DNA from: Bacilli bacterium
Lineage (GTDB): Bacteria > Bacillota_I > Bacilli_A > RFN20 > CAG-826
Length of the DNA: 64,000 bases
Direction of reading: 5' to 3'
Assembly (NCBI GenBank): GCA_024408085.1
Contig: JAKSVH010000002.1
Coordinates: forward strand, 43,613 to 107,612
Part shown: piece by piece, positions 14,379 through 37,537 of the stretch
Layout: each line of letters opens with the position of its first letter
How positions within the stretch are numbered: the first letter of the stretch is position 1
Translations under genes and position numbers: made by a program
Notes under the pieces: model-generated
What the model was told of the DNA's origin: nothing
Database searches by the model: none
What the model saw: only the letters and a program-made list of their open reading frames with translations

Positions 14379-15035
14379 TTAGTTATTCCAATCAATCTTT
14401 TTTAGATTATTTTTCTCCAAAAATTCGTTACACAAATTGAACTGATTTTCATGGAACCAACCACCATGATTTGCACCCAATGGAGAAGGGTGAGTTCTCT
14501 TAATTACAATATGGTTTTTGTTGGTGATAAATTTCTCATATTTTTGAGCTGGACCACCCCAAAGCATGTAGACGATTGGTTGGTCAATTTTCTCCAAAAA
14601 TCCCAGTAAATCCTTCACAAAACACCCATATTCTTTAATTTTATGAGACATTGGTTCACCTTCTCTGACAGTCAAAATCGTGTTCACCAAGAACACTCCT
14701 TGCTTGGTCAAATAAGTAAGGTCTCCAAGGCGTTTGCAAGGCTTACCAGTTTCGATTTCAATCTCCTTAAAGATGTTCACTAAACTTGGTGGACATTCGC
14801 AAGAATTTGGCACCGAAAAAGCAAGCCCCATTGCTTGTCCTTTTTCGTGATATGGATCTTGCCCAATAACGACAACTTTTACTTGATCAAGCGGAGTCAA
14901 ATTGAATGCGTTAAACATAAGTTCTCTTGGTGGGAAAACTGTGTGATTTGCATATTCCTCATCTAAAAACTGATTAAGGGTTTTCCAATAATCTTTTAAT
15001 TTAACTACTTCAAAGAAATCGTTCCAGTTTTTCAT
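14379..15035 (-). CDS. ung: uracil-DNA glycosylase
   Basis: 218 aa. GQDPYH catalytic motif and an HPSPL leucine-loop motif. Confidence 0.9.
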   Translation of the reverse strand: MKNWNDFFEVVKLKDYWKTLNQFLDEEYANHTVFPPRELMFNAFNLTPLDQVKVVVIGQDPYHEKGQAMGLAFSVPNSCECPPSLVNIFKEIEIETGKPCKRLGDLTYLTKQGVFLVNTILTVREGEPMSHKIKEYGCFVKDLLGFLEKIDQPIVYMLWGGPAQKYEKFITNKNHIVIKRTHPSPLGANHGGWFHENQFNLCNEFLEKNNLKKIDWNN

Positions 15036-15038: not shown

Positions 15039-16355
15039 TTATAAAAACATAACATAATAAATTGGTAAGTGTAAAATCTTTCCTCTCATGAAAACTTGTC
15101 TTTCATTAGAAAGAACAATACCTTTTACCATTTTATAATTTACGTCCTCCAACATTTTTGGCATCGCTTTGTAATTTAAATAGTCCCTTCCAGACTTAAC
15201 TTCAATTGGCAAAGGACACAAATTATCATAATCATCAATAAGGAAATCCACTTCGCCAAATTTTCTTTTATCAAAATAAAATAATTTTTCGTGATGAGCT
15301 AACAATTCTTGTGCAACAACCGTTTCATATACGGACCCCAGATTTACTCCCGCTTGTGTATTAAGGATTGGGTTAATATTATTTTTAAACAGAATATTTG
15401 TTAAAATTCCAACATCATTGTAATAAAGCTTCAGTAAGTTTTTCTCTTGCGATTGTAGTAAGGGAAATTTTGGTTCGGAAATCGCTCTACATTCCAAAGC
15501 AATTCCACTTGAAATTAAATACTCAAATTCATTAGAATACTGTTCAAATTTAGCGTATTTTTTATCTTCAATGCTTTTTATTTGCATTCTCTTTACTTTG
15601 TTTTCTAACGTTGAAGCCATAACGTTGTAAATTCTTTTGATTTTTAGCCTATGTTGGTCATCATATTGAGATGCGTCTTCCTCGTAAAAGCTCTTTATTT
15701 GAGTTTGTGCTTGTCTAACTCTAGCAATATTTTTATCTTCAATGTATGTTTTAACTACTCCAGGCAATCCGCCGACAATTAAATAAGTCTTAAATAATGA
15801 CATATAATAATCATGTATTGCATCTAATTGTGGAGTTAAATCATAAAAAGAAAGTTTTAATGAAGAAATAGCATCTTTGGCAATGCCGTTTGCTAATAAA
15901 AATTCTTCAAAATCCATCGGATACATTCTGATTTTAGAGACTGATCCGACAGGAATTAATGAGGTTCTTCTTAAAGAAACTCCAAGTTGTGATCCACTGC
16001 ATATGTATCTAAACTTGCCGTCTTCTCTTAATGGTTTCAATAGTGTTAATAATTCTGGATAGACTTGAATTTCATCAAGAAAAATTAAAGTATTACTAAT
16101 GTTTCCTAATTTATTTCCATAAAAAGCTGTAAGTTGATTGTAGAACTGTTCAATGGTCTTCACAGAATTAAAATATTTGTTGCCAGCAAAATCGTTTGCG
16201 AGATTAATTTCAATAAAATTTTTAAAATTTTCTTTGCCTATTTTTCTAATAATGTAGGTTTTGCCCACTTGTCTTGCTCCGTCAACTAACAAAATTGGGT
16301 CATTAACTTTGTTAAAGTATTGTAAAATGTCTTGTGATATTTTTCTGTAAAACAT
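15039..16355 (-). CDS. AAA-family ATPase with a DUF4143-type C-terminal domain
   Basis: 438 aa. Walker A motif GARQVGKT. Overall AAA_14 plus DUF4143 architecture. The stop is 4 nt upstream of ung. Confidence 0.7.
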   Translation of the reverse strand: MFYRKISQDILQYFNKVNDPILLVDGARQVGKTYIIRKIGKENFKNFIEINLANDFAGNKYFNSVKTIEQFYNQLTAFYGNKLGNISNTLIFLDEIQVYPELLTLLKPLREDGKFRYICSGSQLGVSLRRTSLIPVGSVSKIRMYPMDFEEFLLANGIAKDAISSLKLSFYDLTPQLDAIHDYYMSLFKTYLIVGGLPGVVKTYIEDKNIARVRQAQTQIKSFYEEDASQYDDQHRLKIKRIYNVMASTLENKVKRMQIKSIEDKKYAKFEQYSNEFEYLISSGIALECRAISEPKFPLLQSQEKNLLKLYYNDVGILTNILFKNNINPILNTQAGVNLGSVYETVVAQELLAHHEKLFYFDKRKFGEVDFLIDDYDNLCPLPIEVKSGRDYLNYKAMPKMLEDVNYKMVKGIVLSNERQVFMRGKILHLPIYYVMFL

Positions 16356-17600: not shown

Positions 17601-18766
17601 ATGTATTAATTTTTTCAGGTGCTATGACCGAACACGATTTTGCAACTTTTCAAAGTGAAGCAAAAATCAAACCAAATCCATCAAATCAAAACTTTTATTC
17701 AAAACTTATAAAATGTATAGCTTTAAGAAACAATGTTTCTGTTATTTCACATAGACCATTCGTAAAAGGCATGACAAAGGATAAATATCTTGAATCAGAT
17801 ATTGTTACAGAAGGTAATGTTAGATTCTTCTATACTTATAGAGAGACTTCAAAAGTATATAAAGTTCTTAGAGAGCAAAATGAAATAATTAAAAATGCTC
17901 ATAGAGCAATCGAAGAATTCCACAGCAATGATTTTATCATTGTGGTAGATACTCTTCGTTTAAGCTTACTTAAAGCTGCTAAAAAGGTAGCGGCTGAATA
18001 CAACGTTAAGATTGTTGGAATGTTAACTGATAATCCTTCTAATCTTTCTGGTGGAATTAAATCATATGTTTCTCAAATAAAACGCTTGGTGCGTTCATTA
18101 GATGGTTATTTGGCATTAACAGACGGGCTTGTCCAAGTCTTTAATGGTTATAAACCATCTTATGTTTTTGAAGGACTTGTTGATTCTCCAGACGTTTTCA
18201 AAAAAGATCCTATTTATGATTATTATTTCTTCGCAGGTTCATTATATGAAAGATACGGAGTTAAAACTTTAGTTGATGCATTCCATGAATCAAATATTAA
18301 GTCAAAACTTGTTGTAGCAGGCGCAGGCCCGCTCGCAAAGTATGTTGAACATCTTTCATATGATGATTATAGAATTTTGTATTTACCGCAACTCTCAAGA
18401 GACAAGATTCTTGGTTATGAAAGAAACGCAATTGTAAACATTAATCCAAGACCTCTAGATCCTAAATTAGATAACGAATCAGTTCCGTCTAAGTTAATTG
18501 AGTACCTTTCAAATGGTCAACCAGTCTTGTCTACAAAGTATCCAAAACTCTATGGACCATTTAAAGATGATGTTTTTTGGATTGAAGATTCATCTTTAGA
18601 AGGTATGAGAAGAGCGCTTGAAGAATTCGCTAAGGCTGATATTAATGATGCAAAAAGAAAAGCCTACATTGCTAAGATGAAGGCTTTCGAATTCTATGGT
18701 TTGGAAGTTCAATCAGAATCAATTGATCACTTCTTAACTTCCATTAATTCATCAAGTAATAATTGA
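17597..18766 (+). CDS. glycosyltransferase (GT-B, family 4-like)
   Basis: 389 aa. 4-nt ATGA overlap with the upstream GT gene. Glycos_transf_1-like C-terminus (PSKLIEYLSNGQPVLST). Confidence 0.55.
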   Translation: MNVLIFSGAMTEHDFATFQSEAKIKPNPSNQNFYSKLIKCIALRNNVSVISHRPFVKGMTKDKYLESDIVTEGNVRFFYTYRETSKVYKVLREQNEIIKNAHRAIEEFHSNDFIIVVDTLRLSLLKAAKKVAAEYNVKIVGMLTDNPSNLSGGIKSYVSQIKRLVRSLDGYLALTDGLVQVFNGYKPSYVFEGLVDSPDVFKKDPIYDYYFFAGSLYERYGVKTLVDAFHESNIKSKLVVAGAGPLAKYVEHLSYDDYRILYLPQLSRDKILGYERNAIVNINPRPLDPKLDNESVPSKLIEYLSNGQPVLSTKYPKLYGPFKDDVFWIEDSSLEGMRRALEEFAKADINDAKRKAYIAKMKAFEFYGLEVQSESIDHFLTSINSSSNN

Positions 18767-19914
18767 GTTAGTTTTTCGGTAGTAAAATTAGCTTCAAAAT
18801 ATTGCTTATTATTAAGACCTAACTGGTCTTTTTCTTTTTGATCCATCACAATGATTTTATTAATAATTTCCCCAATTTCCTGGGCATTTTCCCCTGCAAA
18901 AACCGCACCTTTTGCATTTTCGAGCAATGTTTTGGAGTCTCCTTGAACAACACCAATGATAGGTTTTCCGTACTTCAAATATTGGATGGCTTTATTTGGT
19001 ATTGTCTTACCAACATAACCATCATTTTTAAGAGAAACAATTAAGGCATCTGCATTCGCAAAATATGCTTCTGCTTTTTCAATTGGAAGATTACCGTGGT
19101 ATTCGACCTTATCTCCAAGTCCATCCACCACAATTTGTTTCTCAACTTGTTTAAGTAAACTTCCTGTTCCAAGTAAATGTAATTTAATGTCGTAGCTCTT
19201 AACAAATCTCATTGCTTTTACAAGGGTATCAATCATTTGCATACTTCCAATGTTGCCAGCGTACACTAGATTTGTCTTATTTTGGTATTTAATAGGCTCT
19301 TCTTCTTTAGAAGACTTAATGACTGGTTGATTTACCACATTGAAAACTTTGTCTTCTATATGAAGCTCTTTTTCAAAATATTCTTTAAATGATGGAGATG
19401 AAATTACAATACGATCAAATTTCAAATAAATAGATTTGCTCCACTTATATAAAATCTTGTGTGCAAGTGAGTTTCTTCTAACTTGTCCAGTTACTACTGC
19501 AGCTTCTGGCCAAAGGTCTTGGCAATAAAGAACGCTTGGGACTTTATGTTTCTTTGCATAAAGTAATGCAGGTGCTACTGAAATAATTGGAGAAAGCGAA
19601 ACACCTAAAACAACATCAAATTCTTCTTTGAAGTGTCTTACAAATCTTTTGGCATTTCTATGAAATGATAAATAATTACGAATCAAAGATCTTCTGGAGT
19701 CTTTTCTTGCAACTAATTTAACGCGGTGAACTTTAACACCATTAATTTCTTCATACTTAATGTCTTTGTATTCAGGAAGTATTTCTTTAAAGCCATAATT
19801 TGGTTTACCAGTTAAAACTGTTACTTCATGCCCAAACTTCACTAAAGTTTCCGCAAAATCAGTAACAGAGAATCTCTCTGGATAATAATACTGGCTTACA
19901 AGTAATATTTTCAT
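18727..19914 (-). CDS. glycosyltransferase family 4
   Basis: 395 aa. N-terminal MKILLVSQYYYPE and C-terminal EX7E-like region typical of GT4. 40-nt convergent overlap with the plus-strand GT gene. Confidence 0.75.
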   Translation of the reverse strand: MKILLVSQYYYPERFSVTDFAETLVKFGHEVTVLTGKPNYGFKEILPEYKDIKYEEINGVKVHRVKLVARKDSRRSLIRNYLSFHRNAKRFVRHFKEEFDVVLGVSLSPIISVAPALLYAKKHKVPSVLYCQDLWPEAAVVTGQVRRNSLAHKILYKWSKSIYLKFDRIVISSPSFKEYFEKELHIEDKVFNVVNQPVIKSSKEEEPIKYQNKTNLVYAGNIGSMQMIDTLVKAMRFVKSYDIKLHLLGTGSLLKQVEKQIVVDGLGDKVEYHGNLPIEKAEAYFANADALIVSLKNDGYVGKTIPNKAIQYLKYGKPIIGVVQGDSKTLLENAKGAVFAGENAQEIGEIINKIIVMDQKEKDQLGLNNKQYFEANFTTEKLTQLLLDELMEVKK

Positions 19915-19977
19915 ATCTGTCTAGTATTATATACTTCATAAATATTATTTAATATAAAGAAAGTGCTTATACGCACA

Positions 19978-20020
19978 ATAAAAGATCAACTTGCGAGTTA
20001 ATCGTAGAGGTTGATCTTTT
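19978..20020. terminator. hairpin AAAGATCAAC-[19-nt loop]-GTTGATCTTT, 3' of giant lipoprotein gene 1. Copy A of a conserved element.
   Basis: 10-11 bp palindromic arms with U-rich flanks on both strands. The same element, loop included, recurs at 27727-27774. Confidence 0.55.
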
Positions 20021-20029
20021 GTAATTTAA

Positions 20030-23000
20030 TTAAGCGGTTTTTGGAATTCCGTAAGTAATGCTTATGCTAGAAATACGGAATGCACCGGCTGCTACGATTT
20101 TTCCATCTGTAACAACTTTCTTAGCTGCAAAGGAATATGTAAATGGATTAGCAATGCCAATTGAACCACTACCAGCTGTTTTTTCAAAAGAAACATTAGT
20201 AAATGTTGAGTTTTCAAAATTTGAACTGGAATTATTGGTTAATTGAACATCAATAGCCAAAATAACATAGTTTTCGTCAGCTAAATCAAACACAATTTCT
20301 TGACCTTTATAAAGTCTTATTTCAGGTGTAGCTTCACTTCCAATGTATTGTTGATCTGTATTGCCAACAACCGTGTTAGATGAGCCTTTATTGACGGCAA
20401 CACTTACATTTTCGTTTGTCCAAACACAAGAATTGTTTCCTAGTGGATCTGGTGTAATTGTTCCATTAAAGTTAATTGTTTTTGTGACTTGATTGTAATC
20501 ATCCTTATTAAAACCACTACTAGCTTCAACGGTGACTACACAAGTTGCAACTTTGCCATCGACCGTATATGTGATGTTTGCTGTACCAGCTGCAACTGCG
20601 TGAACAACACCATTAGTTACTGTTGCGACTCCTTCTGCATCAGATGCCCAAACTGCTGATTTTGCTTCAGCATCAGCTGGGGAAAATGTTGGAACTAATG
20701 TGACGTCATCATCACCTACTGTCATAGCAAGTTCTGTTTTATCTAAAGTAACACTTTCAACTGCTGGAGCAACATAATCAACAAAACCAAGTTCGATTGA
20801 AGCAAAGTAAATTGTTCCGTTTGTTGCTTTTAAGCTAAAGTATGTTGAACCTGCTGCTGGTTTAATAACGACACTGCCAACAGCGTTAATTGCATATGAA
20901 CTTCCGCTTCCTAATGCAATTTCATTTCCTGTAGGACTTGCTGAATCACCGAAGAACATAGATGCCTTGGCAGAATCTGCAGCAGCCTTAGATATTTCAA
21001 GTTTTACATATTTAATTTCTCTACTAAATGCATAATTGTTGTGAAGTTCACCGCCACCATCCTTCTTCATTTGGATGCTACTATTTCCTTTCATTGCACT
21101 AATGTAAGAGAAGTTACCGTCTGCTGTTGTTGTTTCTGTTGTAACATATGAACCAGTTAATCCTAAACTATCTGGAGTTAAGGTAAATGTATCAACTTCA
21201 GTAACATCAATCTTCTTTTCGGTTGCTGAAACTGTAACGACACATTCAGCATATTTAGTTGTGTCTGCTGCAGAAGTACAAATGACTGTTGCTGTACCAA
21301 CTGCTTTTGGAGTAACTACACCATTTTCTAATGTTATACAATCATCAGAATCAGCTTTAATTGACCAAATTACTTCTTTATTTAAAACTGACGAAGGATT
21401 GATTTCTGGAACTAAAGTAACTGGTTCAGAAGTTGGAGTTAAATCAAGAGTAGTTTTATCTAGTGATACTGATTCAACTGGAATTACATATTCCGGAATT
21501 TCATCATAGACAATCTCAATGTCAGATAAGTTTGTTACTGCATCTTTTGAACCCACAATGTAGAAATATGAACAACCTGCTGGAACTGTGTATACATTAT
21601 CAACAGGATTTAATACATTATCTGTTGTCTTGAGTTCATCGCCAGCATAGACTGTGACAGAACCTGCACTAACACTAAATCTAATTTCAGAAAGACCGGA
21701 AATTGGGGAAACATTCCATAACTTACCTGCGTTCTTTTGGAATTGAATTGTTCCGCTGTTTTTATTAACTTGATATGTTTCAAATAGTAATCCGCTTCCA
21801 TCTGCTGCATATCTAGCAAAGTTGTTCTTATCATATGAACTACCCGGGAAGTCGTTTGTATTAGTAATTGTTGTTTTTGTTAATACTGTGACTTCACAAG
21901 TGTCTGTAAACGAACCATCTGTTGTTGTAACAGTGATTGTTGCTGTGCCTGGTGCAACTGCTGTGATTTCACCATTTTCATCAACTGTGGCAATACTTGT
22001 ATTGTTTGATAAATATGAAACTGACTTATCATATGCATCTGCTGGAGATACTGTAACATCGACAGTTTCTTTATCGCCGGTTGCAAGTGTAATTGAATCT
22101 TTTGCAAATTCAACACCTGTAACTGCAACTTTTGATTCTGAAACATTAATTTCACATGTATCAGTAAATGAACCTTGTGATGTTGTAACTGTAATTGTTG
22201 CTTTTCCAACACCAACAGCTTCAATTTCGCCTGTGTTTGTATCAACAGAAACAATTTCTGGATGATCTGAGGAGAATGTACAGTTTTTATTTGAAGCTGT
22301 TTCAGGCATAACGGTTGCGACTAATGCCCCCGTTTCACCTAATTCCATTGTTAATTCTGACTCGTTAAGAGAAACACCACTTACTTTGGTTACATCAATA
22401 ATATTTACAGAAACTAATGCAAGGTTTTTGGAGTTTGTCTTAGTAAATGCAATTTTTACACCGGAAATTCCTTCACCCGTGATAACAACTGATTTTGTTG
22501 TTGCTAATTCTAATACCTTGTCTAAAGAACCTGCATTTGTAAAGTCTGGGTTAAATGTTGCAGAACTTACAACTTCACCAGCATCATTTAAGGCATAGAC
22601 AGTAACAACGTATTCAGCACTCGTGCTAGTATTTACAATTGAAGTAACATCAACTTGAATTGCGGTCGTATCTTCAAAGAGTTTAATTGATTGTACATAT
22701 TCGTCTTTAGCTCTTAAACCATAAACCTTATCATTTAAATATGCTTCACCAGTACCAGTCCAAACACCATCTGGGAATACAGGGGAATTTGTTTCAGAAT
22801 CCCAAGAGAATGAACCGTTATATGGTAACTCGTGTTTTACAGCCGCTGTAACGGTAACAACACATTCAGCATATTTTGATTCATCATCATCAACCTTAAC
22901 AGTTATTGTTGCTTCGCCAGCACCAACTGCTGTGACTTTACCGTTTTGATCAACGGTTGCAACAGTTTCGTCTGAGGAACTCCATGTGTGTTCTGGATGA

Positions 23001-26000
23001 GTTGCGTCATTTGGTGTGACGGTAGCAACTACTGTTTCTTCGCCACCTTCAACGATGCTGAGTGTTTCCTTATCTAAAGTGATATTTTCAACATCAATAA
23101 TCTTTTCAACAACTGTAACAACACATTTGGCTTCAAATTCTCCATCGGTTGTCTTGACTGTAATGGTTGCTTCACCAGCACTGACTGCTGTGACCTTACC
23201 ATCTACAACTGTTGCGATTGAATCATTTGAAGAAGTCCATGTAACAGTTTTATCGTCTGCATTATCTGGGGATACGGTAGCGATTAATTGCTCGTTTGCG
23301 CCTTCTTGAAGAGTTGTTGTTTCTTTATTTAATGAAACGCCTGTGACGTGCTCAACATATTCATCAAATCCAACAGTAATTGATTTAATATAAATAGCAT
23401 TCTTTGTAGGAGCTAAACTGAAGAAATCAAATCCTTCTTCAGGTGCCATAATAACTATTTTACCTTCAACATTTAAAGGATATTCTGTGTCTTTGCCGAG
23501 GTTAACTGCATTTTCAGTTGGTAATACGCTGTCACCAAATCTTAAATCTGCAGTAGCGTTTTCTGTTGCACCGGATGCGAGATCGATAACAACATATGTG
23601 ATATCTTTGCTAAATCCAAATAAGTTATGTAATTCTGATTTAGGAGTTGTTGAACCACTAATTTGAATATTTCCAGACTTGTCTGCCTTAGCTTGCGTCC
23701 ATGCAAAGTATTCACTTGAATCGCTAGCATAATCTCCTATAAGTCCTAGTGATTCAGCAGTAATTACATATTCGTCCATTGTAGAGACGTCAATAAATCT
23801 TTCTTCTACTGTAACTTCACATTCATCAAATGCAGCAGGATTATCAACGGATTTAACGATAACTTTTGCTGTGCCTGGTTGTAAGCCGGTAACACAACCG
23901 TCTTCATCAACGGAAATGATATCTTCTTTTCCTTCTTCAACACTCCAAATAAGATCTGTAATTGTAGCGTTATCTGGGGACACGGTAGCTGTTAATGTAG
24001 TACAACCACCTTGCAAAATTTCTGTTTTGTGATCTGTTAATTCAACTTTTGTAACAGGAACTTTTGTTGCAGCAACTTTAACTTCACAAGTAGCTGAAAT
24101 TTCTGGATCATCAGTTGCAACTGTAATTATGGCTGTGCCTGGAGCATATGCAGAGATAATGCCATCGGTGCCAACGTCTGCAATTTCAGGATGATCAGAA
24201 CTATATGTGAGTGTTGTGTGTGTTGTGTCGCTTGGATTTAAAGTTGCTTTAAGCATAAAGGATTCTTCAACAACAAGAGATAATGATTCTTTGTTTAATT
24301 GTATTCCTTCAAGTGGAACATTATAATCAACAAAACCGATTTCGATTGAAGAGAAATATGTCGCGCCTTTTGTATTTTTTAAACTGAAGAATGTTGCATC
24401 TTCTGATGGCTTAATAACTACATAGGTGCCCGCTGTTGTTATATCATAGACAGTACCTGATCCCATTGGAATTACATCGCCGGTCGGCATTCTTGAATTA
24501 CCAAAACGCATTTCAATTGTGTTGTTCGCTGAAATGTCATTTCCTACAGCAAGTTTTACATATTTAATAGGTCTACTATAAGCATACTTGTTGTGGAGCT
24601 CTGAGTCTTTAGGGTTGTCTCCAGTGCTATAGTTTCCTTGAATACTTCCGCTCGCGCTATGTTTTGCTAAGTCAGTCCATGCATATTCGTCATTTGAACC
24701 AGATCCATAAGAGCCAAGATTTAATGATTCAGCACCTGCAGTTAAGACAACTTTGTCAACTTCATCAACATCGATGAATTTATTAACAACAGTAACTGTG
24801 CATGATGCGGATAAGCCACTATTTACATTTGAAGCTTTAACAATGACTTCTCCAGCTTTAAGTGCAGTAACTTTTCCATTATCTAGCGATACGATATCTT
24901 CTTCGCCTTCTACACTCCAAACTAATTCAGGATGAGTTGCATCTGCAGGCAAGACAGTTGCGATTAATTGCTTTTCATCATCAAGAGCAAGGGTGATTGC
25001 TTCTTCATCTAATTCGATGCTTGTAACTAATACCTCATTCTCTGTAACGTTTACTGCAATATTTGTATGTTTTGTGCCATCAGCACTTGTAACTGTAAGA
25101 GTTGCACTACCTGCTTTAAGTGCTGTAATTTTACCATTATCAACTGAGATAATTTCTGTGTCTTCTGTTGACCATGTTACTTCTTGAGGGGCCTTGGCTG
25201 GTAAAACACCTGCGGTAAGAGTGATTTCTTCACCTTCAGCCATGTTTAATGACGTGATTTGTGTTTCACCATTCTTAACATATACTGAATCTGGTTCGTA
25301 TGTAGATTTATCGGTTACTACAGATGTTGTTCCAGAACATAATTGTGGTTCACCACCATTATTTCCTACATAACAATTTGTAATTTCAATCTCGCCATCT
25401 AATTTAACGGTATTAATTTCATCAATAGCTGCTTGTGAAACTAATGCTTTCTTCATATAGAATGTGTATGTTTTTTCAAGATTGTCCTTAAAGGCAACAT
25501 TCATTGAATAATTGCCGCTAGTTGCTGTTAATTCGGTTTTCTTAACAACGTTTTTGAAATCAACAAGATTTAAGAAAGCAGCTGTATCCATTTTTTCGCT
25601 GCTATCTATAACTGCTTTATTAACAGTAACTTCATCATCAGAAACTGTAATGTCGTTAATTGAAATATTAACTGTTTTAGCAACGCCACCAGATTTAACA
25701 ACTTGAGATCTCATAGATAATTTTTTGCCAAGTACAACTTTTGTAGATTCGCTCTTAAGTACTACTGTAATTGCATGGTCGCCATCTTGAATAATGGCTT
25801 CCTTGCCCATAACAAAGGTAACACATCCAGAAATATTAAATGAACGTTCTGATGTTTCCCCTTCTTCATGAGACATCGCTTCATTGTAAGCATGGACTAC
25901 ACCATCTGCTGCAGCATTAACTGAAACAACACATGACGCTGTTTTTGAGCTATCTGTAGTTGATGTAACTGTAATTGTTGATGCACCAACACCGACAGCA

Positions 26001-27532
26001 GTTAATTTGCCGGTTTCATCAACCTTAACAATATCTTCTTCACTAGAAGACCACACAACATCTTTAAATGTGGCATTTTCTGGGAAGATAGTTGCGGTTA
26101 ATGATTCTGAAACATCATCAATATCTAATGTCATTGTTGTATTGTTCAATTCGATACGATCAACTGGAACAATTTCACTAACGACAGTGATTTTACATGT
26201 TGCGGTCTTACCGTTAACGGTTGAAGCGGTGACAATTTCTTCGCCTGCCATTAAACCTTTAACTTTACCGTTATCAACACTGACAATACCTTTGTCTTCA
26301 GTTGACCATGTAACTGTTTTATCGATTGCGTATGATGGGAGAACTTCTGAAACAAGAGTAACTTCACCATCAATTTCAATTGTAGCTTCTGATTTATCTA
26401 AAAGAATACCTGTAGCTGGTACTGGTACTGGAGCTTTTGCATAAATATGTGGTTTTGGGTAAGTTTGAGTTGACTTATAACAAGCAAAACGTTCAGAACC
26501 TTGGTTTAAGAATAAAGTATTGTGTTCTGTGTTTGCTGGGTCAATACATGTAATTGTTGCTTCACCATCAACAATCTCAATATTAAATGAGGAGTCTGGT
26601 CCAATAGCATCAACTTCGAGTAATTGATTTTTATCGCTTTTTGCAGCTAAATATTTACCACTAGCTGTTTTAAATGAATATGAACCGTCTTTATTTTTAA
26701 TTGTAAAGAAAGAACCGGAACCCTCTCCTAATAATAATTTATCATTATCGACTGTAGCTGCAATAGATTTGAAGTATGTTGAACTTGAAGCTTTTGTTTG
26801 CTCATGGTCCATTGCAAAATATTCATTGTTATATCTGCCAACAAAATTGACTGTTGCACCATCAAGTACTGGCCCGACATCGACTAATGTAGCATCATCA
26901 CTTGTTTTTGATGGGAATGGTATTACTGGGTCTTCAACTGTAATAGAAATAACCTTTTTTACGTCTGGATTTTTTTCAGAGGTAATTGTAACTTTAGCAG
27001 TACCTGCTCCAACAGCTTCAATTTCGCCGTTTTCATTAATAATTACGACGCTTTCTTTGCTACTGGATAAATTAACTACTTTATCACTAGCTGGAGCTTC
27101 GTTAGGTAAAACATTAACAAGAACCTCTTGTGTATCTCCTACAACCATTGTGATTGAGTCAGATGCAGGTTTAACAAGCTCAATGCCTGTAATTGGAATA
27201 TCTGGTCTTCCTGTACCAACTGCTACAAGACATGGGACGTCATTTGCGTATACCGTGGTTGTACCATTCTTATGTCCGGTAACAACACCATTTTGGTCAA
27301 CGCTAGCAATTGATGCGTCATCTGAACGCCAATTAACTTCAACAGAACAACCTTCCATATTGCTTGATGCAGTTAATTGTTTTGTTTCATTAATCTCAAT
27401 AGTGATTGCTTGGCTATCAAGGATAACTGATGCTTGATCACATTGAGGACCTGGTTCTTTGCCACAGGAGCCTAGTGCTACTGCCGCTGCTGCAGCAAAT
27501 GGAATTAATAAGAGTAACGATTTCTTTTTCAT
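20030..27532 (-). CDS. giant surface lipoprotein (2500 aa) with many Big_2 Ig-like domains and three copies of a novel roughly 150-aa module
   Basis: Signal peptide with lipobox (MKKKSLLLLIPFAAAAAVALGSCG) after the SD AAGGAGAG. The ORF-track start at 27565 is an over-extension. Repeated Big_2 signatures (V.W.S.D..IA.VD..G.VTA...G.A.ITV). Three paralogous modules ELHN-YA(Y/F)S..IKYV...FG(D/N)S..PTG......G..Y.....G..VI.P......FSL.......Y..SIE.GF(V/D)(D/E)Y. Confidence 0.85.
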   Translation of the reverse strand: MKKKSLLLLIPFAAAAAVALGSCGKEPGPQCDQASVILDSQAITIEINETKQLTASSNMEGCSVEVNWRSDDASIASVDQNGVVTGHKNGTTTVYANDVPCLVAVGTGRPDIPITGIELVKPASDSITMVVGDTQEVLVNVLPNEAPASDKVVNLSSSKESVVIINENGEIEAVGAGTAKVTITSEKNPDVKKVISITVEDPVIPFPSKTSDDATLVDVGPVLDGATVNFVGRYNNEYFAMDHEQTKASSSTYFKSIAATVDNDKLLLGEGSGSFFTIKNKDGSYSFKTASGKYLAAKSDKNQLLEVDAIGPDSSFNIEIVDGEATITCIDPANTEHNTLFLNQGSERFACYKSTQTYPKPHIYAKAPVPVPATGILLDKSEATIEIDGEVTLVSEVLPSYAIDKTVTWSTEDKGIVSVDNGKVKGLMAGEEIVTASTVNGKTATCKITVVSEIVPVDRIELNNTTMTLDIDDVSESLTATIFPENATFKDVVWSSSEEDIVKVDETGKLTAVGVGASTITVTSTTDSSKTASCVVSVNAAADGVVHAYNEAMSHEEGETSERSFNISGCVTFVMGKEAIIQDGDHAITVVLKSESTKVVLGKKLSMRSQVVKSGGVAKTVNISINDITVSDDEVTVNKAVIDSSEKMDTAAFLNLVDFKNVVKKTELTATSGNYSMNVAFKDNLEKTYTFYMKKALVSQAAIDEINTVKLDGEIEITNCYVGNNGGEPQLCSGTTSVVTDKSTYEPDSVYVKNGETQITSLNMAEGEEITLTAGVLPAKAPQEVTWSTEDTEIISVDNGKITALKAGSATLTVTSADGTKHTNIAVNVTENEVLVTSIELDEEAITLALDDEKQLIATVLPADATHPELVWSVEGEEDIVSLDNGKVTALKAGEVIVKASNVNSGLSASCTVTVVNKFIDVDEVDKVVLTAGAESLNLGSYGSGSNDEYAWTDLAKHSASGSIQGNYSTGDNPKDSELHNKYAYSRPIKYVKLAVGNDISANNTIEMRFGNSRMPTGDVIPMGSGTVYDITTAGTYVVIKPSEDATFFSLKNTKGATYFSSIEIGFVDYNVPLEGIQLNKESLSLVVEESFMLKATLNPSDTTHTTLTYSSDHPEIADVGTDGIISAYAPGTAIITVATDDPEISATCEVKVAATKVPVTKVELTDHKTEILQGGCTTLTATVSPDNATITDLIWSVEEGKEDIISVDEDGCVTGLQPGTAKVIVKSVDNPAAFDECEVTVEERFIDVSTMDEYVITAESLGLIGDYASDSSEYFAWTQAKADKSGNIQISGSTTPKSELHNLFGFSKDITYVVIDLASGATENATADLRFGDSVLPTENAVNLGKDTEYPLNVEGKIVIMAPEEGFDFFSLAPTKNAIYIKSITVGFDEYVEHVTGVSLNKETTTLQEGANEQLIATVSPDNADDKTVTWTSSNDSIATVVDGKVTAVSAGEATITVKTTDGEFEAKCVVTVVEKIIDVENITLDKETLSIVEGGEETVVATVTPNDATHPEHTWSSSDETVATVDQNGKVTAVGAGEATITVKVDDDESKYAECVVTVTAAVKHELPYNGSFSWDSETNSPVFPDGVWTGTGEAYLNDKVYGLRAKDEYVQSIKLFEDTTAIQVDVTSIVNTSTSAEYVVTVYALNDAGEVVSSATFNPDFTNAGSLDKVLELATTKSVVITGEGISGVKIAFTKTNSKNLALVSVNIIDVTKVSGVSLNESELTMELGETGALVATVMPETASNKNCTFSSDHPEIVSVDTNTGEIEAVGVGKATITVTTSQGSFTDTCEINVSESKVAVTGVEFAKDSITLATGDKETVDVTVSPADAYDKSVSYLSNNTSIATVDENGEITAVAPGTATITVTTTDGSFTDTCEVTVLTKTTITNTNDFPGSSYDKNNFARYAADGSGLLFETYQVNKNSGTIQFQKNAGKLWNVSPISGLSEIRFSVSAGSVTVYAGDELKTTDNVLNPVDNVYTVPAGCSYFYIVGSKDAVTNLSDIEIVYDEIPEYVIPVESVSLDKTTLDLTPTSEPVTLVPEINPSSVLNKEVIWSIKADSDDCITLENGVVTPKAVGTATVICTSAADTTKYAECVVTVSATEKKIDVTEVDTFTLTPDSLGLTGSYVTTETTTADGNFSYISAMKGNSSIQMKKDGGGELHNNYAFSREIKYVKLEISKAAADSAKASMFFGDSASPTGNEIALGSGSSYAINAVGSVVIKPAAGSTYFSLKATNGTIYFASIELGFVDYVAPAVESVTLDKTELAMTVGDDDVTLVPTFSPADAEAKSAVWASDAEGVATVTNGVVHAVAAGTANITYTVDGKVATCVVTVEASSGFNKDDYNQVTKTINFNGTITPDPLGNNSCVWTNENVSVAVNKGSSNTVVGNTDQQYIGSEATPEIRLYKGQEIVFDLADENYVILAIDVQLTNNSSSNFENSTFTNVSFEKTAGSGSIGIANPFTYSFAAKKVVTDGKIVAAGAFRISSISITYGIPKTA

Positions 27533-27562
27533 TTTTCTCTCCTTTATTTCTTGATGAGTTAA

Positions 27563-27642
27563 CAAAAAATGTCCGTAATAAACACGCGCACTAAATGCAC
27601 TTTGTGTTTACGACGAACATTGTTTCGTAAATCATAAGGTTA
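27563..27642 (-). promoter_or_regulatory. conserved 5' leader of giant gene 1, paralogous to 31963-32043
   Basis: About 80 nt. Shares AACCUUAUGAUUUACGAAACA (22/22) and CGUCGUAAACAC (12/12) with the leader of gene 2. Contains a U6 tract 32-37 nt upstream of the ATG. A TATAAT at 27649-27654 lies just upstream, which places the conserved block inside the transcript. Confidence 0.5.
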
Positions 27643-27726
27643 TTTAAATTATAAGATATAAATCTTAGAAAGTGAAATGTCTTTTGATTAATTTTATTTT
27701 AGTGGGCATACATGCGAATTTTTTGC

Positions 27727-27774
27727 ACAAAAAAAGATCAACTTGCGAGGTTAATCGTAGAGGTTGATCTTTGA
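27727..27774. terminator. conserved hairpin element (copy B), 3' of giant lipoprotein gene 2
   Basis: GCACAAAAAAAGATCAAC-TTGCGAGGTTAATCGTAGAG-GTTGATCTTT. It differs from copy A by one inserted G in the loop and one substitution in the flank. Confidence 0.55.
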
Positions 27775-27779
27775 TTTAA

Positions 27780-30700
27780 CTAAAATTCAACTTTAATACC
27801 GTTAACAATCATTCTCTTATTTGAGCCTGTGTTGCTATTGGTTAAATTGAAGATAACTCTGAAATATACACCATCCCAATCACTTTCTGCAGGCTTTTCA
27901 AATGAAATATAGCCATTATCAACATAGTCAGCAGTTAATGACTCAATTGCATTCTTGTCAGAAGCCGCATCGCTTGCTGAACTATAGATTTTTAAAGTAA
28001 CAGAATTTACAGTAATTTCAGATTGTTTTGCGCCTGTACTAATTGAGAAAACAGAAACTTCATTATCAAAAGCGGTTTGTGAACATATATATCTATCACC
28101 AATAGCGCCTTTTCCGCCAAGTCCAACATAGTCACCAAGAGTAGTGTTGCCATTAACAATCCAATCTATACCATTGAGTTTACTATAAGTATAGGTTCCA
28201 GTGTAACTTGAGTTGCCACCAGCACCACCTTCGGTTGAAACTTTATAGAAATTGCCTTCGTATGGGTCAACAACAACAGAGCCTTCATCTACAAATGTCA
28301 CTTGAACTTCCGTAGGGCCGTTTACCTTAAATGAATATGTTCCTGAGCTTTCAGTAACTGTAGCACCAGTAGACACCGCTACTGATTTGACTTTGTATCC
28401 GCTATCTGGGGTAACTGTAAATGAATAAGTTGCTCTATTTAAAGCTGTGGCTGTTGGCAAGTTAACTGTTCCGTGTTCAGTGGCCTTAGCGGTAATAGCT
28501 TGAGCTTCTTGAGTTAATGTTTTAATGTAACTTGTTCCTTGTGTTGTTTCTACCCCATATTTTGAGTCGTTTTTAACTTTACCACAAGCTAAAACAGTAT
28601 CACCAATTTGGACATCATCAACTGATGTAAATTTACCAGATGTTGATCCATTCATCATTCTGAAACAGATAAAATCTGTATTATCAATCTTAAATGAGAA
28701 ATTACCAAATTCTGTGCTAAACGCTTCAGTAAATGAAGTAACTGTTCCTCTAACCCAAACTGCTTCATCACTTGTTTCGTCAGAAGACAATGATTGTCCG
28801 TAAGCTAAGGCTTCTGCTCCAGTAAATGGATTGTCTTCAGTACCCTTTTCCTCGCCTTGTGGATTAACGGTGATAGCGTATGTATCTGATTTTCCTTCGT
28901 ATGTAACTGTGACTGTATCATCTTCAGTAGTTAATGCGACTGATGGAGAAACAGAATATTCAGCTGCTTGAAGAACTTTATCTTCACCGCCATTTGTGTA
29001 ATGAGCAGTAACAACTAAGCCATCTTTAACAACTAATTCACCTTCAGTGTATGTTGTTTTTGCTTTTGATGCATCAACTGAAATTGACTCTAATTCTGGT
29101 TGTGGAGCTGGTTCTGATAAAACAGAGACTTCACAATAATCTGATTTTTCTGTATTAAATGTAGAAGTTGCAACAACTTTTGCGCTACCTTCTGCAACAG
29201 CTGTAACAACACCATTATCAACTGTGACACATCCTGCTGGGTCTGCATCAACAACTGACCAAGTAACCGTTTCTTCTGCACCACCAACTGCGTCAACAGC
29301 TGCTGATAATGTAACAGATGTTGTTTCTGTAAGATCTAAGCTTGCAGTCTTTGGAGAAACTGTAACACCGTTAACTGCTGGTTCAGCTGGTTCCGCTTTT
29401 TCCCATTGAATTTCAACGGATTTAATATAAGCAGATTTTGCAGCACTTGCGGTTGTATTAATTGTAATTGTTGAACCTGATGCAGAACCTTCGAATGTTA
29501 CGTCAACATGGTTGGCTTTTTCCATTGTAAAGGCTGAGCCAAAATCACTTGCTCCAACTTTAGCAGAAACTATGACATCACTTGCTGTTGAGTTAGTTGA
29601 AGCATCAACAATAATTTTCTTAATAACTAATTCTGATGGGAAGTTAGAAATTGTAACAACACCTGGATTTTTATTCCATTGAATACCTCTATCACCTTCA
29701 TATCCTTGAATTGTGCCTGAGGCAGCCATTGATGCTCCGGTTTTGCCAGATTCTTCAAATGCGTCTTTTGCAGTAAATGTAAATTTACTTGCTAATACTT
29801 CTGGTGCTTCTGAAACTGTAATATCAACAGATGCTGTTTTTCCGTTGTAAGAAACAACAACTTTGTCATCGCTTAATTCTAATGCACCATCTGGTGAATA
29901 AGTATAATTTGTAATAACTGCTGGATCGCCTACATTGTAATTTGCTTTGACAACCATGCCTGCTGGATCAAATGATTCGCCTTCAACATAATTAACCTTT
30001 GATGGTTGTGTATCAATAACAATTGATTGCAATTCTCTTGCTGTAACAGTGATGTTGACATCAACTGACTTGCCGCCATATGAAACGGTGACTTTATTAT
30101 CAGTTGGTGCTAAAGCACCTGCAGGTGAAATTGTCCAACCAGATGTAATGTCTTCTTCGCTACTATCAGAATAAACTGCATGAAGAATCAATCCAGCTGC
30201 ATTGAATGATTCACCTTCGTTATAAGCAAGTTTTGATGGTTGAGTTTTTACTGTTAATGTTGTTAATTCTTTTTGTGGTTCAGAACCTTCAAAATTGAAT
30301 AACAATTCCTCTACATAAGAAGCAAAGTTTGTGGAAGCAAGGCTAAAGTACTTGGCTCCAGCTGATGGTGTAACATCAAATGTGCCTTTTGCGTTGATTG
30401 GGTAGCTTGTTTCACTTCCCAAGACAATAGTTTCTCCTAATGCTGCTGTTGCACCAAAACAGAAATCTAATGTTGCATCATTACCGGCTTCTTTAGAAAT
30501 TTTAACTGTAACTTTTGTTATTGTTTTGCTAAATGGAATGATATTTGAAACTGTTCCAGATTTGCTTTTAAATTGCATGCTTGGTTTGTTGTATGTACCA
30601 ATATCCTTGTATGAGAAACCATTATTTGTTCCTTCATAATAACCATTTTCTTTTTGATCAAGGCCAAGAGCAGCTAATCCGACTGAATATTCTTTATCTA

Positions 30701-31931
30701 CTGTAATTTCTCCAGTAGGAACTGGTTTTGCATTAACTGTAACATCAACTGGTTTGGTTGCTGTTTGTCCACCAAATGTTGCACTAAATGTAACACTTGT
30801 ATCACCAAGTGCTGCTTTTTCCTTGTTTGGTGTAATTGCAACTGTTACTGTTTCAGTTGTATCGTCTGTGTATGTTGCAACAACAGATAAACCTGCTGCA
30901 GAATAGGCTTCGCCTTCTTCATAAACAGTCTTTGTTGCTGTTCCTGCAATTGCAAGTGATTTAACTTCTTTAGTTGGTGTTGGTTCGCTTGCTGTTAATT
31001 CAGAACCATCAACAACAATAAGTTGTCTTCCATCACGATCGCCAACAACAACTTTATTTAAAACTACGGTTACGCCTTCGGTTGCTGCATTCAAGAATGT
31101 GGTGTAATCGTTAACGATTCCGCCCTTGAAGAATACAGGAACATTTTCTCCAGCGATTGCGATTGTTAATGTTGTATCGTTGTTCTTTGTATTGACTTCC
31201 TTTTTAATAACAACGCCTTGTGCGTTTGCTAAAACGTTTGTTTTAAGAGCATCTAATGCTGCTTTACTAGCAACGTTTGCTGGTTGAGGAACAACGCCAT
31301 CACCATCAGCTTCAACTTTAATATCGCCTGATGTTTCAACTAAGCCTTTGTAGTTACAAAGTGCTGCTGTAACTTTGACTTTCTTACCAATTACAAGTTT
31401 TGGTACGTCTGCTTCTGCTGGGTGATATAAATCAATACCATATTCTCCGTCTTGAATGAAGTATTCACCAGAGCAATTTCTAATTGCAACTACAGTTGCG
31501 CTGAATGTCATTGGTTCTGTAGCACCTGAAGTTTTTGCAAATCCAGCTTCATAAGCTTCTTTTAATCCGCTTACGACTGGTGGGGTTGGTGCATCATCGT
31601 CAACTTTCAAGTTGAATGAGCCTGATCCATAGTTGATAACAACATCGCCTGCTTTGACACCTGTGACTAAACCGTTGGTATCAACAGTTGCGATTGTTGA
31701 ATCATTTGAACCCCAACTAAAGGTACAACCAGAGATATTGACCTCTGCTGTTAATTGCAATGTCTGTCCTGGTTTGATTGTTGTGACGCCACCCGCAGAA
31801 GTAATACTTACTGTAGCTGACTCACATTGCGGATCTGGGGTTGGTCCTGGTGGGTTTGGGTTTGCTCTTTCACAACCCGCCAAACCTGCAGCCGCAAATG
31901 GAATGATTAAGAGTAATGCTTTTCTTTTCAT
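27780..31931 (-). CDS. giant surface lipoprotein (1383 aa) with Big_2 domains, paralogous to the 2500-aa gene
   Basis: Related lipoprotein signal peptide (MKRKALLLIIPFAAAGLAGC) after the SD AAGGAGGA. Repeated Big_2 domains. A module related to the 150-aa repeat (…LGSETSYPINAKGTFDVTPSAGAKYFSLAST…). Confidence 0.85.
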   Translation of the reverse strand: MKRKALLLIIPFAAAGLAGCERANPNPPGPTPDPQCESATVSITSAGGVTTIKPGQTLQLTAEVNISGCTFSWGSNDSTIATVDTNGLVTGVKAGDVVINYGSGSFNLKVDDDAPTPPVVSGLKEAYEAGFAKTSGATEPMTFSATVVAIRNCSGEYFIQDGEYGIDLYHPAEADVPKLVIGKKVKVTAALCNYKGLVETSGDIKVEADGDGVVPQPANVASKAALDALKTNVLANAQGVVIKKEVNTKNNDTTLTIAIAGENVPVFFKGGIVNDYTTFLNAATEGVTVVLNKVVVGDRDGRQLIVVDGSELTASEPTPTKEVKSLAIAGTATKTVYEEGEAYSAAGLSVVATYTDDTTETVTVAITPNKEKAALGDTSVTFSATFGGQTATKPVDVTVNAKPVPTGEITVDKEYSVGLAALGLDQKENGYYEGTNNGFSYKDIGTYNKPSMQFKSKSGTVSNIIPFSKTITKVTVKISKEAGNDATLDFCFGATAALGETIVLGSETSYPINAKGTFDVTPSAGAKYFSLASTNFASYVEELLFNFEGSEPQKELTTLTVKTQPSKLAYNEGESFNAAGLILHAVYSDSSEEDITSGWTISPAGALAPTDNKVTVSYGGKSVDVNITVTARELQSIVIDTQPSKVNYVEGESFDPAGMVVKANYNVGDPAVITNYTYSPDGALELSDDKVVVSYNGKTASVDITVSEAPEVLASKFTFTAKDAFEESGKTGASMAASGTIQGYEGDRGIQWNKNPGVVTISNFPSELVIKKIIVDASTNSTASDVIVSAKVGASDFGSAFTMEKANHVDVTFEGSASGSTITINTTASAAKSAYIKSVEIQWEKAEPAEPAVNGVTVSPKTASLDLTETTSVTLSAAVDAVGGAEETVTWSVVDADPAGCVTVDNGVVTAVAEGSAKVVATSTFNTEKSDYCEVSVLSEPAPQPELESISVDASKAKTTYTEGELVVKDGLVVTAHYTNGGEDKVLQAAEYSVSPSVALTTEDDTVTVTYEGKSDTYAITVNPQGEEKGTEDNPFTGAEALAYGQSLSSDETSDEAVWVRGTVTSFTEAFSTEFGNFSFKIDNTDFICFRMMNGSTSGKFTSVDDVQIGDTVLACGKVKNDSKYGVETTQGTSYIKTLTQEAQAITAKATEHGTVNLPTATALNRATYSFTVTPDSGYKVKSVAVSTGATVTESSGTYSFKVNGPTEVQVTFVDEGSVVVDPYEGNFYKVSTEGGAGGNSSYTGTYTYSKLNGIDWIVNGNTTLGDYVGLGGKGAIGDRYICSQTAFDNEVSVFSISTGAKQSEITVNSVTLKIYSSASDAASDKNAIESLTADYVDNGYISFEKPAESDWDGVYFRVIFNLTNSNTGSNKRMIVNGIKVEF

Positions 31932-31962
31932 TTATACTCCTCCTTTTGAGACTTAGACATAC

Positions 31963-32043
31963 AAAAAAATCCGTATGAACACTAATACGCAATTTTGCGC
32001 TTGGTGTTTACGACGGAGTTTGTTTCGTAAATCATAAGGTTGC
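31963..32043 (-). promoter_or_regulatory. conserved 5' leader of giant gene 2, paralogous to 27563-27642
   Basis: See 27563-27642. The U7 tract lies 33-39 nt upstream of the ATG. Confidence 0.5.
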
Positions 32044-32085
32044 TTATATTTTAATATAATATTTCAACCTTGTATAGACTAAATT

Positions 32086-32427
32086 TTATTTAGTTATTAA
32101 AAATGCGATGAGTCCTACTAAAAATGTTATGATCCCACTTGCTAAAAGTGGATAGAAAATAGCCCAAGCTTTATTTACTACTTCATCAGGAAGTGGATTG
32201 TCCCAATCATGTAGCTTGTGTCTTTTCCAACCTCTATACAAGTCTTGGATTATAAATCCAACTAGTGAGCAAAAAACACCACCAAAGATCATAAAATACC
32301 ATGAATATTTAAGTGGCCAATTTGGTTCTCCAACTAAGTAGAAAATAGCGAGCCCAACGCCAACTAAAACGCCTACTCCTAACAAGATGAATAAGTAGTT
32401 GTACCATTTCTTTGCAGCGTTCTTCAT
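32086..32427 (-). CDS. small 3-TM membrane protein
   Basis: 113 aa, hydrophobic. Confidence 0.4.
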   Translation of the reverse strand: MKNAAKKWYNYLFILLGVGVLVGVGLAIFYLVGEPNWPLKYSWYFMIFGGVFCSLVGFIIQDLYRGWKRHKLHDWDNPLPDEVVNKAWAIFYPLLASGIITFLVGLIAFLITK

Positions 32428-37142: not shown

Positions 37143-37537
37143 TGGTGGAGTCGGCGGGAATTGCACCCGTGTCCAGAGAGGGCCCCACAGTAACGTCTAC
37201 AGCTTAGACGATATTTGTAATTTAACGAAGCATCGCATATCGTAGTTATCTTCGCGAGACTTATTGGATTTCGGTGAACTTTAGCAAGTCAACTATGTCT
37301 TCCTATCCTTTTGGTATGACACCGTACCTAGACGTGAAAGGAATAAAACTCTAGGGAGTGCTCTGTCCGGCGAACTATGCGTCGGTCTCTATGTCGAGTA
37401 GCTTATGCTAAGCAGAGAGATTGTGCTCTTGGAGCACGCATATAACTGTTGTCAGTTATTTTGTTTTGGTATTTGTGGTTACCAGCCAGCTGCAGTCACT
37501 GCCAGGCAATCGACCCTGTCGAAACTAAGTCGACCCC
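37143..37537 (-). ncRNA. ssrA: transfer-messenger RNA (tmRNA, SsrA)
   Basis: The minus strand begins GGGGUCGACUUAGUUUCGACAGGG (the acceptor-arm 5' consensus GGGG...GAUUCGACGGG). It ends GGACACGGGUGCAAUUCCCGCCGACUCCACCA (T-arm GGUUCGAAUCC-like sequence plus CCA). About 395 nt. Confidence 0.85.

Follow-up and report, generated by a model that had tools for sequence, protein, structure and literature searches.

What holds the non-coding borders of two giant lipoprotein genes nearly constant while the proteins encoded between them diverge? The question is raised by a 64,000-nucleotide (nt) stretch of contig JAKSVH010000002.1, which comes from an uncultured member of the Bacilli (RFN20/CAG-826) and is referred to here as the window; coordinates are positions in it unless a related locus is named. 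Two adjacent genes, termed the big and the small gene, together occupy 18.2% of the window, close to the 18% given in a first-pass annotation made from the sequence without database searches. The encoded proteins are 45% identical over their N-terminal 100 residues, and beyond this region they match at the domain level only (25-40% identity), as the earlier description of diverged bodies had it. We conclude that the genes lie within a two-ended non-coding frame, which is found lineage-wide around rapidly changing lipoprotein genes and is not a trivial duplication. Mammalian guts commonly harbour bacteria of the RFN20/CAG-826 group, none of which has ever been cultured and for which no gene regulation is known.

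The two ends of the frame are a 5' leader and a 3' hairpin (Table 1). The leader core, AACCTTATGATTTACGAAACAA, is found without a mismatch (22/22) at 27620-27641 and again at 32020-32041, and is followed in both leaders by the block CGTCGTAAACAC, identical at 12 of 12 positions. On the 3' side, both genes share the first 23 nt of the hairpin, AAAGATCAACCTCTACGATTAAC (19997-20019 and 27750-27772), and the full hairpins of 39 and 40 nt differ at a single loop nucleotide. These identities had been pointed out previously, and we confirmed that each element is present exactly twice in the window. When up to three mismatches were allowed, no further copies of AACCTTATGATTTACGAAACAA or AAAGATCAACCTCTACGATTAAC were found there, with 0.00 copies expected by chance in either case (from shuffled sequences for the leader core).

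We examined 14 related loci from uncultured gut Bacilli of the same group, the 'Ca. Fiminaster' group (L001-L011, L013, L014 and L017). L001 was gathered with a DNA-pattern scan, and the others through homologues of the small lipoprotein and of a 113-residue (aa) membrane protein encoded upstream of the small gene (23 homologues). One homologue of the 113-aa protein is annotated as 'Candidatus Fiminaster equi'; Candidatus Fiminaster corresponds to GTDB UBA3207 of the family CAG-826, order RFN20, and is known from mammalian guts (PMC8957277). The genes flanking the cassettes in these loci are 67-93% identical to those of the window at the nucleotide level. In these genomes the cassettes sit in a slot bounded by the gene for the 113-aa protein and a GT4 glycosyltransferase gene: the former lies directly upstream of the first cassette in L001, L002, L005, L006, L008-L011, L013 and L017, and the latter after the last hairpin in L002, L006, L009 and L011. 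Between these borders the slot holds one, two or at least three large genes, whose number, order and bodies differ between genomes. The bodies are largely unalignable between lineages except for patches at 74-92% identity, and all genes have the same orientation in 12 lineages. The content is not limited to proteins of one architecture, as the second cassette of L002 (10361-13847) encodes a collagen-like lipoprotein with DUF4988 and a collagen-flanked surface repeat and no Big_2 domain. The small-gene cassette of the window and those of L005 and L007 are 93-100% identical in leader, post-terminator segment and signal peptide but only 62-65% identical in their promoters, and in L007 the gene is found at another position. 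This mosaic of identities indicates recombination near the leader core.

Across related species the two elements stay conserved and the proteins encoded between them change rapidly, which leads us to suggest that the elements form a control module, not described before, that serves variable surface proteins. The regulatory junctions that it provides are conserved, and they flank surface-protein genes that are replaced between species, which makes the locus a useful example of how these bacteria vary their surface under phage or host pressure. The locus offers a candidate new cis-regulatory RNA, in which a near-leaderless upstream open reading frame (uORF) would be coupled to a terminator, and a 40-nt hairpin conserved at levels resembling those of rRNA, which we find the most intriguing part of the locus. 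Hairpin and leader may also be used as precise markers for such cassettes in metagenomes.

The structure of the leader was then considered. It is about 95 nt long and is predicted to fold as a single long imperfect hairpin, with z-scores of the minimum free energy (MFE) of the whole leader ranging from -3.1 to -6.2. All 14 leaders (12 lineages) contain a terminator composed of a hairpin of -17 to -27 kcal/mol with U6-7 directly after it. The terminator, with its GC-rich base, lies about 35 nt ahead of the ribosome-binding site. Because a canonical intrinsic terminator is situated between promoter and ribosome-binding site, the leader is predicted to be a terminator-based transcription attenuator. 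The U-run is conserved in its own right, because its 5' pairing partner is interrupted and the run is not needed for pairing. A further helix, P0, joins the 5'-terminal core CUUAUGAnUUACGAAA to the U-tract and the next 12-15 nt, beginning 2-3 nt from the predicted 5' end. P0 is kept with differing sequences: CUUA/UAAG, CCAUUUA/UGAAUGG in L008, UGC-UUUAUGA/UUAUAAA-UGCA in L010 and CAAGUA/UACUUG in L013. In an alignment based on sequence only, 76% of the cells at predicted pairs were paired, compared with 35-58% when the partners were slid; 17 cells showed double changes, compared with 8.0±2.1 in shuffles (none of 500 reached 17), and the covariation score was 0.188 versus 0.152 in shuffles (0 of 500). 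A model-based alignment gave similar pair counts. The 5' sides of the helices are frozen (UAUG, UUACGA and UCGUAAAC), whereas their 3' partners adapt, and the first 38 nt of the leaders are free of insertions and deletions.

A covariance model of the leader (R1), searched over 197 kb of clade sequence, matched these 14 leaders only. In Rfam, a scan of the whole window at gathering thresholds returned tmRNA only; when the two leaders and the hairpin were scanned by E value, the best matches, to unrelated eukaryotic and small RNA (sRNA) families, had E values of 0.1 or above. A GTDB genome scan with the leader core found one related metagenome-assembled genome (MAG) alone, a codon-degenerate leader pattern had 0 matches in JGI metagenomes, and blastn against phages and plasmids gave no matches for leader or hairpin. 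We regard the leader as a new RNA motif of the attenuator type. Two other identities were considered and rejected. A sigma-dependent pause, which the -10-like TATGAT in the initial transcribed region might bring about, was discarded as L002, L008 and L009 have lost the final T, on which such a pause critically depends. The terminated leader was also considered as a trans-acting sRNA with the 5' core as its seed, and no target in the window beat shuffled seeds. Palindromes were also noticed in the promoters of the window (27654-27669, reverse strand) and of L005 and L007-L010: in one promoter type TAAGAT-N4-ATCTTA fills the spacer between the -35 and -10 hexamers, and in the other TTATATT-AA-AATATAA is present. 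Either could be an operator or a chance palindrome in AT-rich sequence.

We found a candidate uORF in every leader. Its AUG, 11-13 nt past the -10 hexamer, is invariant in 14 of 14 leaders; its frame is likewise open in all of them, runs for 13-18 codons, overlaps the 5' arm of the terminator, and always stops within the hairpin (nt 40-57). The consensus peptide is M-[IDS]-[YF]-E-x-x-[PSFL]-[VLF]-[VI]-N, and there is no regulatory codon run in the uORF, whose conserved residues are M-x-Y/F-E ... V/I-N. In the window, a TATAAG overlapping the small-gene promoter lies 7 nt ahead of the uORF AUG. About half of the 46 ORFs of the window have no Shine-Dalgarno motif, and five of them, pth (58005), gdpP (43672), a trxB-like gene (11232), the GT4 gene (19914) and a gene for a 463-aa protein (35580), have TATAAT followed after 6-12 nt by ATG, with no Shine-Dalgarno sequence. 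Because several genuine genes are arranged in this manner, near-leaderless translation seems to be normal in this organism. In the model that we favour, read-through of the terminator would depend on a ribosome on the uORF. As a separate observation, T, V, V and T are among the conserved uORF residues, and Thr (11.4%) and Val (about 11%) are the most frequent residues in both giant proteins, which may be coincidental or may point to the sensing of amino acids.

The 3' hairpin begins 5-12 nt past the stop codon. Its consensus is AAAGAUCAAC-CUCUA-CGA-UUAAC(C/U/-)-UCG-(C/U)AA-GUUGAUCUUU, followed by a U-tract. Among 11 copies from nine lineages, 37 of about 41 columns are invariant, and the last position of the apical loop is among the four or so that vary. 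The sequence on either side of the hairpin is unconserved, and at the 67-77% background identity of flanking genes about ten changes would be expected within it. Because near invariance is observed instead, something must read the sequence of both stem and loop; structure alone would not fix it, and we therefore infer a sequence-specific reader. Ordinary terminators of this genome have loops of 3-6 nt, and the leader terminator in the same loci, unlike the hairpin, evolves freely by compensation. Our best guess from these comparisons is that the hairpin is a terminator and, in addition, the putative binding site of a trans-acting factor, the main alternative being a recombination site at the DNA level. 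Searches beyond the clade with the hairpin gave one chance match in JGI metagenomes (19-mer), which had no inverted repeat, and 0 matches in IMG/VR. For the hairpin loop, no complementary target in the window rose above shuffled controls.

Other identities of the hairpin were tried. A K-turn, a loop-E motif, an attC site and an antisense promoter were rejected on its sequence and alignments, and read-through of the stop codon into the hairpin was rejected as the frames are inconsistent. We also considered icaR of Staphylococcus aureus, in which the 3' untranslated region (UTR) exerts control over the 5' UTR through an anti-Shine-Dalgarno sequence. The hairpin resembles it in showing two C-rich CCUC motifs, next to genes with strong GGAGG/AGAGG ribosome-binding sites; it differs in that the complementarity is about 5 bp, no better than any pair of Shine-Dalgarno and anti-Shine-Dalgarno sequences, and no duplex in the window exceeded shuffles. 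The L017 copy of the hairpin (14639-14693) is complete as far as the apical UUAAC, after which 30 nt of unrelated sequence run to the end of the contig; this is either a junction formed by rearrangement at the apex or an artefact of the assembly end. Finally, the segment UAUGUCUA(U)AAG after the U-tract is common to type-1 leaders and the 3' hairpins of L002 and L006 (window 31950-31962, reverse strand; L002 13900-13915; L006 5670-5685), a hint that they share an origin or that recombination takes place at U-tracts.

The explanation of the whole locus that we consider best, and to which we would give about an even chance of being correct, is as follows. Each giant lipoprotein gene would be its own transcription unit, framed by the two modules at one hypervariable chromosomal slot. 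The invariant AUG, at a distance of 4-6 nt from the 5' end, would be the loading site of a ribosome that translates the uORF. As the uORF crosses the terminator's 5' arm and has its stop within the hairpin, this ribosome would block folding of the terminator. After read-through, the 5' end would pair with the 12-15 nt past the U-tract (P0), hiding the uORF start and capping the 5' end of the mRNA. Expression of the costly giant genes would thereby be coupled to translational capacity. The 3' hairpin would end the transcript and also be read sequence-specifically in trans, and the conserved modules would act as homologous anchors between which bodies are replaced, duplicated or lost.

The closest functional class of the leader is that of terminator-based attenuators, probably of the leader-peptide type. 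In trp, his and pyrBI of E. coli and in bmrCD of B. subtilis, folding of the terminator depends on a ribosome on the leader. As in these systems, a short candidate ORF overlaps a promoter-proximal intrinsic terminator. The uORF described here, however, is near-leaderless and has no Shine-Dalgarno sequence, no regulatory codon run and no substitution pattern of the coding type. The clamp P0, which joins the 5' end to sequence past the U-tract, is an additional feature, and the targets are giant surface lipoproteins rather than biosynthetic or resistance genes.

Several observations weigh against the explanation given above. The absence of a Shine-Dalgarno sequence from the uORF is accompanied by a flat distribution of its variable sites over the codon positions (9, 8 and 8), which is no coding signature, and its conserved peptide residues fall on nucleotides that are structural too. 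A small antiterminator hairpin, UUACGA/UCGUAA, is invariant in 13 of 14 leaders and might be stabilised by a protein; it is broken in L013. On the 3' side, the hairpin displays no covariation, and the sole stem change, in L008, breaks a pair, because of which a role at the DNA level is possible. The distribution of the elements was judged on about 200 kb of clade sequence alone. In addition, the modules are separable: L013 and L014 keep a diverged leader without the hairpin, and the second cassette of L002 has the hairpin without the leader.

The first-pass annotation had also raised the idea of a shared post-transcriptional control, with one regulator recognizing leader and loop. This suits the data better than the comparison with Mycoplasma discussed below, and the part that concerns the leader survives, as the leader is predicted to be a structured RNA with an embedded terminator. 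A single regulator for both elements is possible, and what speaks for it is a resemblance between leader and hairpin at 13 of 16 positions (p of about 0.07), which is suggestive; complementarity between them (UCGUA:UACGA) was not significant (p of about 0.7). In its most developed form, leader and hairpin would be the two ends of one system served by a single dedicated factor, either an RNA-binding antiterminator that recognizes a shared UAYGAUU(N)AAC/UAC motif and governs both read-through and 3'-end formation, or a hairpin-specific recombinase that captures and shuffles surface-protein cassettes together with their promoters. We regard this as a long shot. If true, hypervariable giant surface proteins would be managed by a device of a new kind, which in the recombinase version would be an integron-like system in Bacillota.

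Turning to alternatives for the individual elements, the leader may be governed by factor-dependent antitermination, in which an RNA-binding protein or a NusG paralogue of the LoaP/RfaH/UpxY type reads the 5' core UUAUGRNUUACGA ... UCGUAAAC and stabilises an antiterminator or modifies RNA polymerase, the uORF being incidental. The UUACGA/UCGUAA helix overlaps the 5' arm of the terminator; at -3 to -5 kcal/mol and without covariation it is too weak to compete unaided, a trait that it shares with protein-dependent antiterminators. Two further points favour this alternative, namely that in the leader helices only the 5' strand has a frozen sequence and that the uORF shows no wobble excess. LoaP targets likewise pair a leader hairpin, the UNCG recruitment element, with a leader terminator before very long operons (PMC12691694), and NusG paralogues of this kind, UpxY among them (PMC11685472), exert antitermination on long envelope or secondary-metabolite operons. 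The loci described here share with those of LoaP, UpxY and RfaH (ops-JUMPstart) a conserved leader element and a terminator ahead of unusually long units for surface products at variable loci. They differ in that no paralogue gene lies beside the target: no NusG-like, ANTAR, BglG-type or other RNA-binding regulator was found among about 46 ORFs of the window that were scanned, and no NusG or KOW protein among the called genes of the related loci. The leaders have no stable UNCG hairpin, the UACG that is present having no closing stem, and no ops element, GGCGGTAGNNTG, by which RfaH is recruited, was found near them within two mismatches. Moreover, the helix is broken in L013, where AUG, uORF and P0 persist, and the targets are single genes, in whose giant ORFs no strong internal terminators were found that would call for processive antitermination. 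Taken together, a protein-dependent or NusG-paralogue mechanism is less supported than ribosome-dependent read-through, and we consider it unlikely. The structures might instead be constitutive stabilisers or processing signals that sense nothing, with the 5' hairpin shielding mRNAs of 4-7.5 kb from 5'-end-dependent decay or serving as an RNase III site, the 3' hairpin shielding the 3' end, and the U-tract terminating little. Pairing in P0, which extends from 2-3 nt off the predicted 5' end to beyond the U-tract, agrees with this, as does the fact that P0, which can matter in read-through transcripts only, is kept by compensatory change. A stabiliser, however, has no need for an uninterrupted U6-7 after a GC-rich stem (14 of 14 leaders), an invariant 5' sequence or an AUG, and a protective 3' hairpin needs no 37 frozen positions, which makes this alternative quite unlikely.

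For the hairpin, the question is whether it acts in RNA or as a cassette boundary in DNA. In the latter case it would be a recombination site, as folded single-stranded or as double-stranded DNA, for a recombinase or HUH-type enzyme encoded elsewhere, which would capture, duplicate and excise cassettes in an integron-like manner. The attC sites of integrons are 57-141 nt long, consist of R''-L''/L'-R' boxes with the R-boxes RYYYAAC/GTTRRRY, and are used by the integrase IntI, the product of intI. The likeness is one conserved imperfect palindrome at the 3' end of each cassette, irrespective of the encoded protein, in a tandem array of one to at least three cassettes; the arms GATCAAC/GTTGATC, one ending in AAC and the other beginning with GTT, match the R-boxes at 6 of 7 positions each. 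In addition, conservation stops sharply at the edges of the hairpin, identity is discontinuous across it in different genome pairs, RNA covariation is absent, and the L017 copy is interrupted at the apex. However, no integrase or transposase, intI included, was seen in the window or in about 130 kb of the related loci, 40 nt with a single 10-bp stem are too small for attC, the cassettes are large (4-7.5 kb) and bear their own promoters, and it is the sequence itself that is frozen. The L017 junction lies close to a contig end (30 nt away) in short-read data, and a change in length by one nucleotide at the apex is tolerated, as would be expected of an RNA loop. We judge a DNA-level boundary to be quite unlikely. 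The first-pass annotation had compared the flanks to the vlp/vsa/vsp systems of Mycoplasma, in which they would be expression sites or substrates for programmed antigenic or phase variation. In the vlp, vsa, vsp and vpma systems, clustered lipoprotein paralogues have near-identical 5' UTRs and signal peptides and divergent mature parts. In the lipoprotein genes examined here, too, the 5' UTR and signal peptide are conserved in common and the bodies vary, and cassettes turn over between lineages. On the other hand, a scan of about 46 window ORFs against Pfam revealed no recombinase, there are no silent copies and no single expression site since every cassette has its own promoter, no inversion is seen in the 12 lineages with their single orientation, and we found no inverted repeats flanking promoters, no exact tandem or coding-repeat switches, and no homopolymer switches such as promoter poly-A. 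The variation that is seen here is one between lineages. What stands of the comparison is therefore the conserved-flank cassettes, lineage-wide, with varying number, order and content and with mosaic identity on an evolutionary scale; the switching device does not, and programmed antigenic switching, which is not supported, is very improbable. Finally, the two copies in the window, being the only ones there and adjacent, might reflect a recent tandem duplication whose flanks have not yet diverged and have no function. The same elements occur where flanking genes are only 67-77% identical at the nucleotide level, both leader types are found as single copies elsewhere, and the leaders differ by compensatory changes. 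With the elements present throughout the lineage and cassette number, order and content differing, we find a recent duplication scarcely credible.

Table 1. Features of the window and contents of the slot in related loci. Energies and structures are predictions.
Feature	Location	Strand	Description
Big giant lipoprotein gene	20030-27532	-	2500 aa; 14 Big_2 stretches, Big-like, HL_N-beta (Pfam)
Promoter of big gene	27648-27676	-	sigma-A-type; TTCACT-17-TATAAT; 10/12 consensus positions
5' leader of big gene	27546-27641	-	R1 79.9 bits; MFE -32.4 kcal/mol, z = -5.4 to -5.6
Intrinsic terminator in big-gene leader	27564-27621	-	-24.6 kcal/mol, then U6
Candidate uORF in big-gene leader	27591-27635	-	MIYETMFVVNTKCI, then stop; 14 codons
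3' hairpin of big gene	19975-20020	-	39 nt, apical loop one nt shorter; then UUUUAUU
Small giant lipoprotein gene	27780-31931	-	1383 aa; three Big_3, two Big_2 (Pfam)
Promoter of small gene	32048-32076	-	sigma-A-type; TATACA-17-TAAAAT
5' leader of small gene	31945-32041	-	one long hairpin, helices P0-P3; R1 98.6 bits; MFE -26.3 kcal/mol, z = -4.5
Intrinsic terminator in small-gene leader	31963-32017	-	hairpin 31970-32017, U7 31963-31969; -16.6 kcal/mol for terminator part
Candidate uORF in small-gene leader	31982-32035	-	MIYETNSVVNTKRKIAY, then stop; 17 codons; start about 4-6 nt from predicted 5' end
3' hairpin of small gene	27727-27772	-	10-bp stem, internal loop CCUCUA/CAA, 3-bp CGA/UCG helix, apical UUAACC, U-tract
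Gene for 113-aa membrane protein	32086-32427	-	upstream slot border; 23 homologues, 48-85% identity
GT4 glycosyltransferase gene	18727-19914	-	downstream slot border; no Shine-Dalgarno; TATAAT, 11 nt, ATG
Slot with one large gene	L006, L008, L009, L011, L013
Slot with two large genes	window; L002; L001 and L005 (at least two each)
Slot of L007	L007		724-aa membrane protein, giant lipoprotein, then another promoter

As to the lipoprotein genes themselves, the ORF list had placed the start of the big gene at TTG 27565. This was rejected, and ATG 27532, with the ribosome-binding site AAAGGAGAG ahead of it, is preferred. Lipoboxes are present in both proteins (ALGS-C and LAG-C). The small-gene protein is 100% identical to P0024, a protein encoded on a contig of 136,843 bp in an NCBI MAG labelled 'Bacilli bacterium', and a word-indexed search with the N-terminal 110 residues of the big protein returned zero homologues.

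The related loci provided some additional observations. In L002, the ORF of the second cassette is broken into 115 and 1058 aa by an apparent frameshift. The gene for the 724-aa membrane protein of L007 (1302-3574), which has no Pfam match, begins 20 nt after the gene for the 113-aa protein, and the hairpin behind it is a different one with a large loop, AAAAAGUACA-N17-UGUACAUUUU. In L015, from a different lineage of lower GC content, two Big_3 lipoprotein paralogues share a motif in the promoter region, TGCGCACRGGTGTAT (4930-4950 and 9935-9955), as is also the case in L016; these paralogues have neither the leader nor the 3' hairpin.

The neighbourhood of the slot in the window consists of chromosomal housekeeping genes, namely ligA, pcrA, tsaBE, mfd, ftsH, tilS, pth, dnaB, rplI, ssb, gdpP and the tmRNA gene. 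The last (37143-37537, reverse strand), with the tag peptide DNSYMRAPRAQSLCLA followed by a stop, is the sole Rfam family above the gathering threshold. A gene for an AAA_14/DUF4143 ATPase (15039-16355, reverse strand) lies between the uracil-DNA glycosylase and glycosyltransferase genes; in the syntenic L013 it is not at that position.

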